Below, piece after piece: positions 38,513 through 45,152 of a stretch of DNA of 64,000 nucleotides (position 1 is its first letter; the number at the start of each line of letters is the position of its first letter). The DNA comes from Escherichia phage UGJNEcP3. The stretch lies in the sequence record OV876907; one strand, given 5' to 3'. The notes beneath the pieces were generated by a model. The model had not been told where the DNA came from and ran no database searches. It saw nothing but the letters and a program-made list of their open reading frames with translations. The translations under genes were made by a program, and so were the position numbers.

Positions 38513-39637
38513 ATGGAAAGATTTATGGCAGAATTTGGACAAGGATATGTCCAGGTTCCTACATTATCTGAAAACAATGCTGTAAGGTACAAACTTAGTA
38601 TAGCTGGTAGTTGTACTAAGTCTACCACAAAAGCATATGTTAAATTTCAAGATGGGGACTTCGGTCCCCAGAATTTTCAAAATGGATTAAATCTTATAGA
38701 AATAGACGTTAGTGCCGAACCTAAAGTGGTGGCTAACAAAACTTATAGTTTTACAAAAGATTTTGATGTTATCTCTGAAGCTTTTATTACTTACATAAAT
38801 TCAATACCTGCAAACAGAATAGTTTGTTTAGTATCTTCTGGTAGATTAAACGCTTCACAGAAACTTATTGATTGGTTCCGTGCAGCAGGAAGTACAGCAT
38901 TCCCGTCTAAATGGATGATAGAGCGATTTGAGCCGTCTTATTCGGCCTTTTACGTTTCTGGTAGAAATACCATAGTGATGGAACACGTCCTTTATAATGA
39001 TGGGGTGTTTGTTGAAGATGTTTCTACACCATTAGAAGTCGTTTTTGACGATATCAGTGATGTCGGCGGTACCGGATATCCTATAAGAATAGTAGAAGAT
39101 GAAAATACTTATCTAAGTAATGGTGGGGAGGAAATAAAACGTTTCCCTACGGATTCTCCTACCACTCCTTGTGCTGATTATAATATGAAGCCTGGGGAGT
39201 TCTTTTATCTTAAATTCCAAATGATGTGCGACCAGGAATTAAAAGATTCAGAAGGGACTTCTCAAATGTCTGTTAGATTTTTTGATTCTAATAGTGCTTT
39301 GACCGGTACTGTAAATATGGAAATCCCGACTAATTTCCCTGCCGGGTCTTGGATGACTTTTGAGCGAGTAATTGAAGTTCCTGCTAATACAGAAACATTT
39401 ACATTGTATGCAAGAAAAACAGTGGCCAGTGGAGGTGGTGGTGTACGCAATGTGATGTTTGGGGAAGTATCAGAGCCGGAATCACAACCTAAATCAGCTG
39501 AATTTGGTGTAAATGGTATTCGTATGAATTTCGGTACCGAAACTAAGAATATGGGTATTACTATAGCCCAGTTATACGATAAAACAGGTACTAAACCGGG
39601 GCAGGTTTGGGTATCTGAATTTAGAGAAAAATATTAA
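38513..39637 (+). CDS. 35: long tail fibre hinge gp35
   Basis: 374 aa, synteny 34-35-36-37. Confidence 0.75.
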   Translation: MERFMAEFGQGYVQVPTLSENNAVRYKLSIAGSCTKSTTKAYVKFQDGDFGPQNFQNGLNLIEIDVSAEPKVVANKTYSFTKDFDVISEAFITYINSIPANRIVCLVSSGRLNASQKLIDWFRAAGSTAFPSKWMIERFEPSYSAFYVSGRNTIVMEHVLYNDGVFVEDVSTPLEVVFDDISDVGGTGYPIRIVEDENTYLSNGGEEIKRFPTDSPTTPCADYNMKPGEFFYLKFQMMCDQELKDSEGTSQMSVRFFDSNSALTGTVNMEIPTNFPAGSWMTFERVIEVPANTETFTLYARKTVASGGGGVRNVMFGEVSEPESQPKSAEFGVNGIRMNFGTETKNMGITIAQLYDKTGTKPGQVWVSEFREKY

Positions 39638-39660
39638 GGAACCTTCGGGTTCCTTTTTCG
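39638..39660 (+). terminator. C(UUCG)G hairpin terminator after gene 35
   Basis: GGAACC-UUCG-GGUUCC followed by UUUUUCG. Confidence 0.6.
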
Positions 39661-39671
39661 TTTTCTACGGC

Positions 39672-39679
39672 CATAAATA
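39672..39679 (+). promoter_or_regulatory. candidate late promoter (CATAAATA) for gene 36
   Basis: CATAAATA about 33 nt upstream of the gp36 ATG; one mismatch to consensus. Confidence 0.35.
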
Positions 39680-39712: not shown

Positions 39713-40360
39713 ATGGCAGATTTAAAATTAGGTTCTACAGCAGGAGGTTCGGTATTATGGCACCAAGGTAATTTCCCCTTAACGCCTGTATCAAATGACC
39801 TTCTTTATAAAACATATAAAGTTTACACCGAGTATAATAAACCACAAGCAGTTGATAATGATTTCGTTTCAAAAGCCAACGGCGGTAATTATAAGAACAA
39901 CGTGTATTTTGAAAAAGGTTTGACCTTTAATGATACTAATGGATATGGTATTAAATTAGGAGCAAGAACAGCCGGAGCCCCGTTTACAGCTTCTTTCCGT
40001 ATTAAAGGTGCTTTTGGATACGAAACGGAAGACGGTACCCCGTTTATGATATTTGACCCAAATACAACAGTTGGTGCTAAACGTCTTACCGTAATGGGTG
40101 ATTCATTATTCCGACAAGTATATGATGAATCAGGTCGTGTATTCAGCCCAGGCAACACCCCTACTAAAGCACAAATTGGATTGCCGTTAGTAGATAACGC
40201 AAAACAGGTCCAAATAAATAATACTAATATGCAAACAATGACTGGAGTACTTGCGGCTCCTAACTTCATTTCATTAAATCCGGCCTCTGACGCAGGACAT
40301 GTTCCCCGTTTCGACCAGATTGTTATTAAAGATTCTATCCAAGATTTTGGTTATTATTAA
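39713..40360 (+). CDS. 36: long tail fibre distal connector gp36
   Basis: 215 aa; MADLKLGSTAGGSVLWHQGNFPL... and C-terminal HVPRFDQIVIKDSIQDFGYY match recalled T4 gp36. Confidence 0.85.
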   Translation: MADLKLGSTAGGSVLWHQGNFPLTPVSNDLLYKTYKVYTEYNKPQAVDNDFVSKANGGNYKNNVYFEKGLTFNDTNGYGIKLGARTAGAPFTASFRIKGAFGYETEDGTPFMIFDPNTTVGAKRLTVMGDSLFRQVYDESGRVFSPGNTPTKAQIGLPLVDNAKQVQINNTNMQTMTGVLAAPNFISLNPASDAGHVPRFDQIVIKDSIQDFGYY

Positions 40361-40368
40361 GAGGCATT

Positions 40369-43300
40369 ATGGCTACTTTAAAACAGATACAATTTAAAAG
40401 AAGTAAAGTAGCTGGTGTACGTCCTACGCCAGCGCAGTTGGCTGAAGGCGAGCTGGCTATTAACTTAAAAGACCGTTTGTTATTTACTAAAGATGATACC
40501 GGCGCCATCATCGACCTTGGCTTTGCTAAAGGCGGTAATATTGACGGTAACGTAGTTCATAAAGGAAATTATAATCAAACCGGTGATTATACCTTGAATG
40601 GTACTTTTACCCAAACAGGTGATTTTAATTTAACTGGTATTGCCAGAGTAACCCGTGACATAATTGCGGCAGGTCAAATTATGTCTGAAGGTGGCGAGCT
40701 TATTTCTAAGAGTTCTTCAACTTCTCATTTGAGATTCTTTGATGGTGCATCACGTGAACGTGGTATTATCTTTTCTCCTAATAATGCAGGTTTGACAACT
40801 CAGGTAGTTAATATCCGCGTTCAAGATTATGCTGCAGGAAGTGAAAGCACTTACGCGTTTTCAGGCAACGGCCTATTTACTTCACCTGAAGTATCAGCAT
40901 GGAAATCTATTTCGTCTCCACAAATTCTGACCGATAAAGTTATTACAAATGGTAAGAAAGAAGGTGATTATGATATCTATTCAATGGCCGATAATACTCC
41001 TTTGGCCGAAAGTGAAACAGCAATTAACCACCTACGTGTTATGCGAAATGCGGTAGGAGCTGGTGTATTCCATGAAGTAAAAGATAATGACGGTATCTCA
41101 TGGTATGCAGGCGATGGACTCGATGCATATCTTTGGTCGTTCACCTGGTCCGGTGGATTGAAAGCGGGTCATTCTATTGCTGTCGGTCTTCCGCACGGTT
41201 CTAAAAATTATTCAGAAATGGGGCCTGGCTCGATAGCTTTAGGTGATAACGACACCGGATTAAAATGGCACCAAGATGGTTATTTCCATACAGTAAACAA
41301 TGGGACAAGAACTTTCATCTACGGACCAGAAGAAACGCAAAGCCTTAGAAAAATGGTTATGGGTTATTCTCCGGATGGGATTAATATGACAGTCCCTCCA
41401 ACAGAAAACTATGCCCTGGCAACTGTAGTTACTTACCATGATAATAACGCCTTTGGTGATGGCCAAACTCTTTTAGGATATTATCAAGGTGGTAAGTACC
41501 ATCACTATTTCCGTGGTAAAGGCGCGACGAACATTAACACCGCTGGCGGTTTGTTAGTTACTCCAGGCAATATCGACGTGATTGGCGGTTTAATTAATAT
41601 CGACGGTCGCAGTAATGCTTCAACCTTACTGTTTAGTAGCTATACGTCTGGACAAAGCTCTGTCGATAATATGAATATACGCGTTTGGGGCGATACTTTT
41701 ACTACTGTAGGTGGTACTCGCAAAAACGTAATGGAAATATCTGATGCCACTAGCTGGATGCAATATATTCAACGAACAACTGCAGGTAAAGTCGAATCGG
41801 TTCTAAACGGCACCCAGATTGTTAATGAAAACTTGACCGTAGTAAAAAATGCTACATTTGATGGTACAATCAGCGCAGCAGGTGAAATCGCAACAAATGC
41901 AGTAAATGGCCTTCGTATTTGGAACGATGATTACGGTGCTATTTTCCGTCGTTCAGAAGGAAGTCTTCACATTATTCCTACTGCTTTTGGTGAAGGTAAA
42001 ACCGGAGATATTGGTCCACTTCGTCCATTTAGTATTGCTTTAGATACCGGTAAAGTTGTTATTCCTGACTTGGATTTATCCCATACCACTTTTGCAGAAA
42101 ACGGTTATATTAAATTTGGCGGACACGGCGCTGGTGCAGGCGGATATGATATTCAATACGTCCAAGCAGCTCCTATTTTCCAGGAAATCGATGATGATGC
42201 CGTAAGTAAATATTACCCAATTGTTAAGCAGAAATTCTTACAAGGAAAGGCTGTTTGGTCTTTAGGTACCGAAATTAATTCAGGGACATTTGTTATCCAT
42301 CATTTAAAAGAAGATGGGACCCAGGGCCATACCTCAAGATTTAATGCCGATGGTACAGTTAATTTCCCTGATAACGTGCAGGTTGGCGCTGGTGAAGCTA
42401 CTATTGCTCGTAATGGTAACATCTTCTCTGATATTTGGAAAGTATTTACCTCTGCCGGTGATATAACTAACATTCACGATGCTATTGCCTCTCGTGTTGC
42501 TAAAGAAGGCGACACGATGACTGGAAAATTGACTATTGCCGCTGCGGATGATGCTTTATTGATTAAAGCCCCAAATGCCAATAATAGTTCTCATATCCGT
42601 TCAGAAGTCGCTGGTGCTAATAGCTGGTTTGTTGGTAAAGGCGGTGAAAGTGATACGGTATCTTTTTATAACTACAAAACATCAACCGGTCTAGATTTGA
42701 GTGATAATGGAGTAATTTCATTTAATCCTAAATCATTTAATTTAGCTCAAATGAGTGAAAACCGTCTGTGGATTAATGGAACAAGATGGGTTGCTACAAA
42801 TCCAGGCGCTATTAGCGGACAATTCGCACTTGAGGCTCCTTTATTTGTAGAACACGGTGACCTGAATGGTAACGTTTATTATCCGATTGTTAAAGGCCGA
42901 AGTTCTTCTGCTGGGTTTGGGTACACGTCCTCCGTAGAGCTAGGTACTTTACGTTCAGGTACCGCAGCCTGGGCCACCGGTTGTATAATTGTTCGTTCAG
43001 CTGAAAATACACCAGAACAAGGACATCCTGCCGCGGTTTATCAATTTTTGTCCAACGGGCAGTTTAGTGCTCCCGGAAGAATTGTTTCTGGTTGGGCTGG
43101 TATTGGTGTTGGTGTTGAACCAGCTTGGACCACGCCATGTATTTCTATTGGTGACGCTGATACTGGTATCGTATGGGAATCCGATGGTATCTACAACCTT
43201 TATGCGAATGGACAAGGTGTATTCAGTATTCGTGCTGGACTTGCTCAAACATTCGGTAACGTAGCATTACACGTTAACGCAGGTATGTATGTTCGTGATA

Positions 43301-43647
43301 ACATTGATGTTAACGATGTTTATATCCGTTCTGATATTCGTTGTAAGTCAGAAATTAAGCTTATTAAGAACGCTCAAGAGAAATCTAAACTCTTAGGCGG
43401 CTATACTTATCTGCTTAAAAACTCTGTTACAGACGAAGTTAAACCATCTGCAGGTTTAATTGCTCAGGAAGTTCAAGAAGTATTACCTGAACTTGTTTCT
43501 GAAGATAAAGAGACCGGACTGCTTCGTTTGAACTATAACGGTATTATTGGTTTAAATACAGCTACTATCAACGAGCATACTGACGAAATCAAGGAATTGA
43601 AATCCGAAATTGCTGAGTTGAAAGCATTAATTAAATCATTATTATAA
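40369..43647 (+). CDS. 37: long tail fibre distal subunit gp37 with C-terminal intramolecular chaperone domain
   Basis: 1092 aa; N-terminus [36 protein letters not shown]...; C-terminus [10 protein letters not shown]...GGYTYLLK...[16 protein letters not shown] has the intramolecular chaperone (peptidase S74-like) signature. Confidence 0.85.
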
Positions 43648-43651
43648 GAAA

Positions 43652-43665
43652 GGGCCTTCGGGCCC
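43652..43665 (+). promoter_or_regulatory. C(UUCG)G hairpin between genes 37 and 38, directly upstream of the gene 38 RBS
   Basis: GGGCC-UUCG-GGCCC followed by UGGAGGUUUUU and the gene 38 ATG. Confidence 0.45.
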
Positions 43666-43676
43666 TGGAGGTTTTT

Positions 43677-44456
43677 ATGGCAGTAGTAGGAATTCCTGGT
43701 TGGATTGGGACTTCGGCCGTCGCTGAAACCGGGCAAAGATGGATGTCGGCCGCTTCGAGGGAACTTCGTTTAGGAAACCCTTCATGGATGTCCCAATTCG
43801 CCGGCCGCTCAAGAGAAATTATTCACACACTTGGAGCAGACCATAACTTTAACGGTCAATGGTTTCGTGACCGTTGTTTTGAAGCCGGTGGTGCTCCTAT
43901 AGTGTTTAATATCACAGGCAACTTAGTATCATATACTAAAGATGTTCCGTTGTTCTTTATGTACGGTGATACCCCTAACGAATATGTTACTTTGAATATT
44001 CATGGTGGCGTTCATATGTGGGGCCGAGGTGGTAATGGTAGCGTAAATGGAAGCCCAGGCACTAATGGTGGCGACGTAATCCAAAATGATATTGGCGGAA
44101 GACTTCGCATTTGGAATTATGGTGTAATAGCCTCCGGTGGTGGTGGAGGTGGTGCAGTATCATTACAGAATAGTTGGCCTGCAAATTCTACCGCAGGTGG
44201 TGGAGGCGGTCGACCATTTGGTCTCGGCGGTGGTGGCGTTAATTGGCCTGGCGGCAATGCTAGTTATGACGGCCCAGGTGGTGGTGGTAATACAAGTCAA
44301 TTTGGCGGTGGTAATGGAGGTGATGCAGGTGGCGCTGGTGGCGACGGATGGGGCAATCACTTATCTAGATCTGGGGGTGGTGCTCCTGGTAGAGCAGTAT
44401 TCGGTTCCTCCCCATCATGGGGTTCTACAGGCACTATCTACGGCTCTTGGTTATAA
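43677..44456 (+). CDS. 38: T2-type tail fibre adhesin gp38 (glycine-rich motifs)
   Basis: 259 aa; N-terminus [24 protein letters not shown]...[26 protein letters not shown]; C-terminal half has multiple poly-Gly blocks separated by short variable segments. Confidence 0.8.
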
Positions 44457-44472
44457 TACGAAAGTATTAAAT

Positions 44473-44480
44473 TATAAATA
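44473..44480 (+). promoter_or_regulatory. late promoter TATAAATA for holin gene t
   Basis: Exact TATAAATA about 19 nt upstream of the t ATG, with AGGAG RBS between. Confidence 0.6.
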
Positions 44481-44498
44481 TCTTTAAAGGAGAAAAGT

Positions 44499-45152
44499 AT
44501 GGAACCAAAAGTAGGATTTTCATTATCAGACCTACTTTTTGGACTTCTTGATAGAATTTTTAAAGATACTTCTTCCGGGAAAGTAGTTTTTTCCCGGGTC
44601 CTAGTCGTAATATTATTGTTCTTTATGGCATTAATTTGGTATAAAGGCGAGCATATTCTAAACTTTTACAAAGAGACAACTTATGCCTCTTATACTGAAA
44701 TGATTAGACAAGACCAGGACAATAGATTTAAAATTGCGGCTATCGAGCAGCTCCGAATAGTGCATTCTTCTTCAGGCGCAGACTTCACAGCAATATATTC
44801 TTTTAGACCAACCAACATGAATTATTTTGTGGACATGGTGGCTTATGAGGGTAAATTACCGGAAACGGTAGACGCAAAAAATACGGGAGGATTTCCGATT
44901 GACAAAACGTCAGTAGAGTATATGGCGGGAGTTAACGGGAACTATTTTGAATCAAGTACAGAAACTGTGTTCCTTCCTACAAAGAAGAAAACCCAATTCA
45001 CGTATATGTTCTCATGCCCGTTTTTTAATTTGGATAACATCTATGCCGGCTCGATATCATTATATTGGTATGATATCAAACCGGATTTAGGATTTCCTAG
45101 ACTTTCGTCTATGTGTGGTCAGGCCGGGAGGACATTAGGTCGAACTCGTTAA
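44499..45152 (+). CDS. t: holin T
   Basis: 217 aa; single N-terminal transmembrane segment and large periplasmic domain; blocks SDLLFGLLDRIFKD, VVILLFFMA, YEGKLPETV match recalled T4 T. Confidence 0.9.
   Translation: MEPKVGFSLSDLLFGLLDRIFKDTSSGKVVFSRVLVVILLFFMALIWYKGEHILNFYKETTYASYTEMIRQDQDNRFKIAAIEQLRIVHSSSGADFTAIYSFRPTNMNYFVDMVAYEGKLPETVDAKNTGGFPIDKTSVEYMAGVNGNYFESSTETVFLPTKKKTQFTYMFSCPFFNLDNIYAGSISLYWYDIKPDLGFPRLSSMCGQAGRTLGRTR

Follow-up and report, generated by a model that had tools for sequence, protein, structure and literature searches.

Genes 37 and 38 of Escherichia phage UGJNEcP3 (sequence record OV876907) raise the question of how this phage recognizes its host: does gp38 sit as a separate adhesin on the long tail fiber's tip and contact the receptor, as in phage T2, or is gp38 an assembly chaperone and gp37 the receptor-binding protein, as in T4, and which receptor is targeted? 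We analyzed a stretch of 64,000 nucleotides, here called the window, in which the two genes occupy positions 40369-44456. A preliminary description, made from the DNA letters, had proposed a T2-type module with a self-cleaving gp37 and a glycine-rich gp38 adhesin, and it had placed both open reading frames (ORFs) exactly where we found them:

40369..43647, plus strand: gene 37, long tail fiber distal subunit precursor, 1092 aa, 117.1 kDa (PHROG 1699 over the full length, E = 0; annotation of OV877765.1)
43677..44456, plus strand: gene 38, monomeric tail-fiber tip adhesin, 259 aa (Pfam, PHROG, PDB, AlphaFold2, Foldseek)

Our analysis makes it very likely that the two genes encode a self-cleaving gp37 and, at its tip, the adhesin gp38, in the arrangement known from T2, T6, and S16, with the cleavage, the incorporation of gp38 into the virion, and the receptor as predictions. 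As such, the module is an ordinary, well-described T2/S16-type receptor-recognition tip that has already been deposited and correctly annotated. The region 40369-44456 agrees in every position (100% identity) with Escherichia phage UGJNEcP4, a member of the genus Dhakavirus (OV877765.1), in which gp37 is labeled 'long tail fiber protein distal subunit' and gp38 'tail fiber protein; host specificity', and the second-best record across the region was only 87% identical.

gp38 is an adhesin of the T2/S16 type

The Pfam family GP38 (PF05268) covers aa 47-259 of gp38 (E = 5.5e-82, 275.3 bits, cut-off 25) and Gp38_N (PF21721) covers aa 1-42 (E = 7.9e-21, 74.2 bits, cut-off 25), PHROG 2056 was matched with E = 1e-108, and sequence searches of the PDB returned the gp38 proteins of PP01 (9V85, E = 3.3e-74) and S16 (6F45_D, E = 3.5e-51). 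An AlphaFold2 model, built on an alignment of 92 sequences that also served for all entropy and conservation values given below, had a mean predicted local distance difference test score (pLDDT) of 86.2 and a predicted template-modeling score of 0.80, with low confidence in the first 14 residues, as expected without gp37. When this model was compared to the PDB with Foldseek, it overlaid with 9V85_C at a TM score of 0.93 (normalized to the target) and 1.3 Å and with 6F45_D at TM scores of 0.80-0.84, and every match beyond the PP01 and S16 gp38 proteins had E > 1. The model and the overlays point to the three-domain fold of these adhesins, which consists of an N-terminal helical bundle, a beta-helix, and a polyglycine-II sandwich. 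The profile hits, the sequence matches to solved structures, and the predicted fold all classify gp38 as a T2/S16-type adhesin, and the T2-type module of the preliminary description could be retained. The following parts of gp38 were delimited, with HVS denoting the hypervariable segments:

43677..43811, plus strand: aa 1-45, N-terminal helical attachment domain with W9, W22, and W37 (Gp38_N; tryptophan conservation)
43812..44021, plus strand: aa 46-115, conserved beta-helix core, completed by aa 244-259 (low entropy; strands with pLDDT 93-96)
44040..44066, plus strand: HVS1, aa 122-130, SVNGSPGTN (entropy peak, 92 homologues)
44154..44195, plus strand: HVS2, aa 160-173, between G154-159 and G174-178 (highest entropy run, 2.66 bits)
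44232..44309, plus strand: HVS3, aa 186-211, containing Q208, which corresponds to Q206 of phage RB51 (entropy; RB51 alignment)
44340..44375, plus strand: HVS4, aa 222-233 (entropy; identical to the OmpF-typed adhesins discussed below; replaced in phage Bp7)

The three tryptophans of the attachment domain are kept in most homologues (W9 in 90, W22 in 91, and W37 in 75 of 92). In S16 gp38, the N-terminal helices carry at their apices three tryptophans that fit into three equivalent pockets on the gp37 trimer (PMC6851490). The Gp38_N match and the retained tryptophans bear out that the 259-aa gp38 has an attachment domain of the T2 gp38 type. The column entropy concentrated in the four HVS, which are separated by conserved glycine-rich motifs (GRMs) with invariant glycines at aa 116-121, 131-132, 154-159, 174-178, and 212-221, and aa 161-170 of HVS2 formed the block of lowest pLDDT within aa 41-259, at 63. 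This is the layout of five GRMs and four HVS that was defined by Trojet et al. (PMC3157838) and with which later collections agree (PMC12032242; bioRxiv 10.64898/2026.04.02.716166). Glycine makes up 26% of gp38 and 37% of aa 116-259, with six runs of 3-6 glycines, so that the poly-glycine blocks with variable segments between them, noticed earlier from the letters, are now mapped to residues.

Comparison with the known systems separates architecture from allele. The closest solved structure is PP01 gp38 (9V85; PMC12892980), with 61-64% identity and an overlay at 1.3 Å that extends over 216 aligned columns; it differs in that it binds OmpC of O157 and diverges from the window in HVS2-HVS4. T2 resembles the window in its architecture, with a gp37 that is processed (in the window by prediction) and a gp38 adhesin of about 260 aa, with RSDIRLK located 99 residues from the gp37 C-terminus, but its gp37 is 1341 aa long. 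S16 (6F45) shares the gene order 37-38-t, the SDxRxK chaperone, the three tryptophans, the beta-helix, and the polyglycine-II sandwich, whereas its gp37 has 749 aa instead of 1092, its HVS loops are different, and it binds Salmonella OmpC. The structure of the S16 adhesin tip complex was reportedly determined by Dunne and colleagues in 2018. The alignment with T2 and S16 gp38 that had been suggested in the preliminary description yielded the same architecture at low identity (52% and 48%, respectively). The term 'T2-type' therefore holds for the architecture but not for the allele, which falls into the OmpF-type group of RB51, Bas38, Bas46, and Bas47.

The glycine-rich part of gene 38 also stands out at the DNA level, with a GC content of 0.50 and a GC skew of 0.32 between flanks with a GC content of about 0.40. 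Two alternate-frame ORFs run across this half of the gene, 44137-44487 (plus strand, 116 aa) and 44163-44360 (minus strand, 65 aa). We rejected both as genes because they, like the local GC content and skew, are by-products of the runs of GGN codons (GGT 36, GGC 19). Outside the window, a protein of 303 aa labeled E. coli (P0080) combines Peptidase_S74 with the two Pfam domains of gp38. Either the chaperone end of gp37 has been joined to gp38 by read-through or fusion, or the start was miscalled on a contig that stems from a prophage or a contaminant.

gp37 ends with an endosialidase-type intramolecular chaperone

Pfam detected Peptidase_S74 (PF13884, 'chaperone of endosialidase') at aa 988-1043 of gp37 (45.5 bits, cut-off 22), and in a PDB sequence search aa 922-1091 matched the S16 gp37 construct of 6F45 (6F45_A) with E = 2.5e-28. 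By profile, the C-terminus of gp37 is thus a member of the endosialidase-type intramolecular chaperone (IMC) family. The features of gp37 are:

41719..42036, plus strand: aa 451-556, domain shared with the gp34 trimerization domain (Pfam Gp34_trimer, E = 9e-10)
42553..42750, plus strand: aa 729-794, gp37 trimerization region (Pfam gp37_trimer, PF20744, E = 1.2e-6, 28.9 bits, cut-off 21.7)
43132..43329, plus strand: aa 922-987, distal tip of the mature fiber and predicted gp38 docking surface (alignment to the S16 gp37 tip, 6F45_A; co-variation)
43327..43347, plus strand: predicted autoproteolytic site R987-S988, R-SDIRCK (SDxRxK conservation; MyRF alignment; mechanism of T5 pb1, endoNF, and MyRF)
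43330..43644, plus strand: IMC, aa 988-1092, 105 aa, 11.6 kDa (Peptidase_S74; 6F45_A, E = 1.3e-23)
43534..43641, plus strand: C-terminal amphipathic helix, aa 1056-1091, presumed trimeric coiled coil (heptads; fragment model)

For comparison, gp37 and gp38 were extracted from 11 reference phages and aligned, giving 12 phages together with the window. The motif S-D-x-R-x-K, which contains the S988/K993 dyad, is invariant in all 12 gp37 proteins (T2 and S16 are among them), and its distance from the C-terminus is 99-117 residues. The IMC domain also contains the core motif GxIAQEVxxxLPE. With phmmer, the gp37 motif aligned onto the crystal sequence of the MyRF ICA, (S587A)DLRAK592 (7DC3, E = 0.025), and the endoNF and T5 structures were not detected in the phmmer search with the IMC domain. 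In cleavage of the S74 type, a lysine that lies five residues downstream activates a serine, and the chain is cut at the bond on the N-terminal side of this serine (PMC4690869, PMC8326128). T5 pb1 is cut at the Thr1263-Ser1264 bond with Lys1269 as the partner (PMC4690869), endoNF has the dyad S911/K916, and MyRF is cut at P586-S587 with K592 (PMC8326128). By analogy with these proteins, autocleavage of gp37 is predicted at R987-S988, S988 acting as the nucleophile and K993 as the general base, which would result in a mature gp37 of aa 1-987 (computed mass 105.5 kDa) and a released chaperone of 105 aa (11.6 kDa). Processing has been reported for T2 gp37 (PMC3157838). The IMCs of K1F endoNF, T5 pb1, and MyRF resemble that of gp37 in the Ser-x4-Lys dyad at the start of the domain and in the C-terminal helix, but they are very low in identity, and what the gp37 IMC precedes is the surface on which a separate adhesin docks and not an enzymatic or self-binding tip.

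The last ~35 residues of gp37 show heptads with 73% L/I/V/M at the a and d positions in the best register, and residues 1056-1091 (fragment positions 87-122) form one long helix with pLDDT 78-89 in an otherwise poor single-sequence AlphaFold model. A trimeric coiled coil, as in the T5 pb1 and MyRF structures (PMC4690869, PMC8326128), is what we infer by analogy for this helix. The preliminary description had recognized a chaperone signature that is followed by a coiled coil. The three protein strings on which it relied occur at aa 988-997, 1010-1017 (GGYTYLLK), and 1028-1043, and the signature was substantiated by the S74 profile, the 6F45 match, and the invariant serine with its lysine at i+5; the heptad-patterned helix at the end of gp37 was recovered as well, its trimeric state being drawn from the related structures.

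Further upstream in the shaft, aa 420-567 (41626-42069) matched the T4 gp34 structures 4UXE and 5NXF with E~1e-13 in the PDB sequence search, and the distal and proximal half-fibers therefore have a common domain.

The N-terminal domain of gp38 co-varies with the gp37 tip

Ten of the phages have the receptor-domain type of the window. Among these, three types of the gp38 N-domain occur, each with its own type of gp37 tip and IMC:

N-domain type A: window, NC-G, Shf125875, Bas47, Bas38
N-domain type B: Bas46, fPS-2
N-domain type C: JS10, FL31, RB51

Types B and C thus combine gp38 N-domains other than that of the window with other gp37 tips. In pairwise comparisons, the identity of the gp38 N-domain followed that of the 40 C-terminal residues of mature gp37 with a Spearman coefficient of 0.72-0.74, while the C-domain did not track the gp37 tip (-0.24 to 0.21); as the pairs are not phylogenetically independent, the p-values are not to be taken literally, which reduces the weight of this result. 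The pattern is what would be expected from the sequences if the N-domain docks to the gp37 tip and the C-domain acts independently. It agrees with a chimera experiment in which PP01 gp38 needed the N-terminal 113 residues of T2 gp38 to work on T2 gp37 (PMC12892980).

In the mechanism that we propose, gp37 would be made as a 117-kDa precursor whose C-terminal 105 residues are an endosialidase-type chaperone, and the terminal helices of this chaperone would nucleate the gp37 trimer. When the triple beta-helix has formed, Ser988, activated by Lys993, would cleave the R987-S988 bond, and departure of the chaperone would expose the fiber tip. One gp38 monomer could then dock to the threefold gp37 tip via its N-terminal three-helix domain, with W9, W22, and W37 inserted into three equivalent pockets of the tip. 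The remainder of gp38 would be a beta-helix that bears the polyglycine-II sandwich formed by the GRMs, and the segments 122-130, 160-173, 186-211, and 222-233 would be loops at the distal end that touch a porin of the outer membrane and thereby determine the host range.

OmpF is the most likely receptor

Six phages that were found by experiment to depend on OmpF have adhesins with 91.7-92.4% identity to the receptor domain of gp38 (aa 116-259); by comparison, the identity of this domain to T2 is 56% and to S16 48%. T2 uses OmpF and FadL as receptors. The six phages are RB51, Bas38 (AugustSocin), Bas46 (ChristianSchoenbein), Bas47 (AlbertHofmann), the Yersinia phage fPS-2, and FL31. Their gp38 proteins are of similar length (259 or 257 aa), and they belong to Tequatrovirus or Mosigvirus, whereas the window belongs to Dhakavirus. 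Bas38, Bas46, and Bas47 are typed as OmpF-dependent in the BASEL supplementary table, the OmpF dependence of fPS-2 comes from ompF and lipopolysaccharide-core mutants (PMC7917993), and RB51 is typed as OmpF-dependent, with a Q206L exchange that reportedly switches it from OmpF to OmpW (bioRxiv 10.64898/2026.04.02.716166). HVS4, Q208, and all GRMs of the window are identical to those of the OmpF-typed adhesins. Judged by this similarity, OmpF is the most likely receptor of gp38, and we regard it as probable.

Depending on the phage, 11-12 of the 144 residues differ from the six typed adhesins, eight of them in HVS1-3 (residue of the typed adhesin first, residue of the window last):

HVS1: T122S, N126S
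HVS2: A168P, P169A, A171S
HVS3: A199G, A203G, Y205N
Outside HVS: R/W220A, A250S, I259L

Most of these substitutions are common to NC-G, VR5, pEC-M719, and ABTNLsp5 and part of them to ESh24 and JS10; S250 alone is found in the window only. The resulting combination of HVS2 (WPANSTA) and HVS3 is hereafter called the sub-allele. A different change is seen in the Dhakavirus Bp7, whose gp38 is 95% identical over aa 1-209 (window 43677-44303), a part that comprises the N-domain, the beta-helix, and HVS1-3, and then continues with another GRM4, HVS4, and C-terminus. From the sequence, Bp7 gp38 is a natural recombinant with a breakpoint after HVS3. The receptors of Bp7 are reported to be LamB and OmpC (PMC10987938, which cites Chen et al. 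2020), so that the changed HVS4 alone goes with different receptors in this phage.

Alternative readings

The points that weigh against a self-cleaving gp37 with an OmpF-binding gp38 concern both parts of this reading, and a full-text literature search for UGJNEcP4 gave no paper that names the phage. [quoted passage not shown] R976 and R987 of gp37 lie upstream of S988, none of the arginine positions is shared by all 12 tips in the alignment, and assigning the sensor would take a trimer structure. In addition, the single-sequence AlphaFold model of the IMC fragment had a pLDDT of 44, and only its C-terminal helix was used. The unplaced sensor arginine and the poor model would also suit an IMC that is degenerate or retained and stays uncleaved, with gp38 binding elsewhere or nowhere. 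We rejected this reading as very improbable: the dyad and its motif are invariant in phages that include S16 and the reportedly processed T2 (PMC3157838), a retained IMC would hide the very tip that co-varies with the gp38 N-domain, and a T5 chaperone that was left uncleaved blocks receptor binding (PMC4690869). Least probable of all is a T4-type arrangement, in which gp38 helps in assembly as a chaperone without becoming part of the virion, and receptor binding falls to the C-terminus of gp37. Many GenBank homologues are indeed named 'long tail fiber assembly chaperone/catalyst', and T2-type gp38 is said to aid fiber assembly too and then to stay attached (PMC7917993). However, Pfam assigns only PF05268 and PF21721 to gp38 and no Tfa-like chaperone family, gp38 matches crystal structures of adhesins from virion tips, and gp37 ends in a chaperone domain of the removable type. 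The preliminary description had named an unprocessed gp37 with its own receptor-binding tip among the findings that would speak against it; a PDB search with full-length gp37 (E <= 0.01) returned S16 gp37 and T4 gp34 only and no T4 gp37 tip. On the basis of the adhesin-only Pfam result and of this search, the T4-type arrangement was rejected.

With the T2-type module retained, it could still be that the sub-allele targets another porin (OmpW, OmpC, LamB, or FadL) or restricted loop variants of OmpF, which we consider unlikely. The eight substitutions in HVS1-3 set the window apart from every one of the OmpF-typed adhesins, among which the OmpF dependence of FL31 is itself weak at one log only (PMC12032242). 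Y205N lies three residues from Q208, the site at which a single HVS3 change is reported to convert OmpF into OmpW specificity. Bp7, with OmpF-like HVS1-3 and a different HVS4 and C-terminus, reportedly has other receptors, the sub-allele carrier ABTNLsp5 was isolated on Salmonella, and we found no receptor data for the HVS2/HVS3 sub-allele of NC-G, VR5, pEC-M719, and ABTNLsp5. On the other side, the domain as a whole is 92% identical to the OmpF set with HVS4 and Q208 unchanged, and close gp38 relatives recognize the same receptor in published analyses (PMC12032242). Position 220 is R or W among the OmpF binders, and the scaffold therefore tolerates change. Furthermore, JS10 combines an OmpF-type HVS3 with the HVS2 of the window, which suggests that segments are interchangeable within one specificity group. 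Because the sub-allele is untyped and the HVS4 change in Bp7 goes with other receptors, we keep OmpF at the level of a good probability and leave a distinctly smaller share to another or a narrower specificity.

The label 'assembly chaperone/catalyst' is used for gp38 in the records of Shf125875, Bp7, JS98, PhAPEC2, OLB35, and other phages. 'Assembly chaperone' is a T4-derived name and is wrong for T2-type gp38.

Mosaic origin of the module

Sliding-window DNA identity showed that the flanks and the center of the locus have different relatives. Genes 36 and t (39713-40360 and 44513-45112) have an identity of 96-99% to NC-G and JS10, which are Dhakavirus phages, but of about 60% to phages of Mosigvirus and Tequatrovirus. 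The region that comprises the IMC and the gp38 N-domain (43313-43912) behaves in the opposite way, with 90-96% identity to Shf125875, Bas38, and Bas47 and no more than 59-77% to JS10. The DNA of the gp37 shaft is patchy even in comparison to NC-G (65-97%). From these identities, the IMC and the gp38 N-domain look like a cassette that is common to Mosigvirus and Tequatrovirus and sits within Dhakavirus flanks, as would result from exchange between genera. Recombination at conserved motifs is already known at the T-even fiber locus (PMC3157838), and the 43313-43912 cassette, the patchy shaft, and the switch in Bp7 are instances of it.

Transcription and translation signals

Genes 34, 35, 36, 37, and 38 follow each other in the window, with the holin gene t (44499-45152) downstream, and the order 37-38-t is kept in the 11 reference phages. 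The following signals were found around them:

39636..39655, plus strand: terminator-like C(UUCG)G hairpin and T-run directly after the gene 35 stop (8-bp stem, TTCG loop, TTTCGTTTTC tail)
39672..39679, plus strand: possible T4-type late promoter CATAAATA for genes 36, 37, and 38, with one mismatch to TATAAATA (consensus only, weak)
43651..43666, plus strand: C(UUCG)G hairpin after the stop of gene 37 and ahead of the Shine-Dalgarno sequence of gene 38 (a hairpin at the same place in 12/12 phages)
43667..43671, plus strand: Shine-Dalgarno sequence GGAGG of gene 38, 5 nt upstream of the ATG (direct reading)
44473..44480, plus strand: T4-type late promoter TATAAATA of holin t and 3' boundary of the fiber transcription unit (same place in the fPS-2 annotation)

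In Yersinia phage fPS-2, a terminator is annotated at the position that matches 39636-39655 and a late promoter TATAAATA at the place homologous to 39672-39679. The exact TATAAATA precedes gene 34 (34415) and t (44473), and none was found between genes 37 and 38. With 4 exact copies of TATAAATA in the window against 6.9 expected, there is no enrichment, and we base the promoter assignments only on position and on the fPS-2 annotation. Given the layout of terminator and promoter around genes 35 and 36, genes 36, 37, and 38 are probably co-transcribed and share one transcript.

The stems of the hairpin between genes 37 and 38 differ among the 12 phages but compensate (GGGCC/GGCCC, GGGGC/GCCCC, GGGGG/CCCCC, and GAGCC/GGCTC). 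In a 61-nt context, this hairpin was not more stable than shuffled sequences (z = -1.05), and its support is the conservation across phages. In total, 11 perfect-stem C(UUCG)G hairpins occur in the window, including those at 39636-39655 and 43651-43666. Messenger RNAs of T-even phages carry stable intercistronic hairpins, and the UUCG hairpins of the window probably reflect these.

Genomic context

From about 51489 onward, coordinate arithmetic places the window beyond the end of the linear 170,590-bp record OV877765.1. As gene 37 lies at 159,470 in that record and at 40,369 in the window, the window must wrap into the start of the record, which is expected of a circularly permuted genome. For the segment 50500-53500, the one record matched at 99% or more was absent among the matches listed, which would fit a match that is split across the record ends. 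A tRNA scan and an Rfam search at the gathering threshold revealed no tRNA genes or RNA families anywhere in the 64-kb window. NCBIfam had no match for gp37 or gp38, which is uninformative because this library is aimed at bacterial and archaeal annotation. In gp35, the fiber hinge connector (gene 35, 38513-39637), aa 57-130 matched the Pfam family ILEI (PF15711, interleukin-like EMT inducer) with 29.1 bits at a cut-off of 27, an unexpected family name for such a protein.

Significance of the module

As a self-cleaving chaperone of gp37 and a polyglycine adhesin gp38 are well described structurally and genetically, the locus contains conceptually nothing new. What this analysis adds is the prediction of OmpF as the receptor, with the caveat of the untyped sub-allele, a residue map that gives the predicted cleavage site, the tryptophans used for attachment, and the limits of the HVS and GRMs, and the description of the IMC and gp38 N-domain as a cross-genus cassette. 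The exchange of this cassette between genera is a further case of the known modular shuffling at the fiber locus.

The sub-allele, which is carried in whole or in part by NC-G, VR5, pEC-M719, and ABTNLsp5 as well as by ESh24, and thus mostly by Dhakavirus phages but also by a Tequatrovirus, may be more than a neutral version of the OmpF adhesin and may direct the fiber to another porin or to other OmpF loop variants. We regard this as rather doubtful, but if true, it would be another natural receptor switch by a few loop substitutions beside the residue equivalent to Q206.

Since the module governs to which bacteria the phage adsorbs, work on phage therapy and diagnostics would read or engineer this part, and for practical use HVS1-4 would be swapped while the gp38 N-domain is kept matched to its own gp37 tip.

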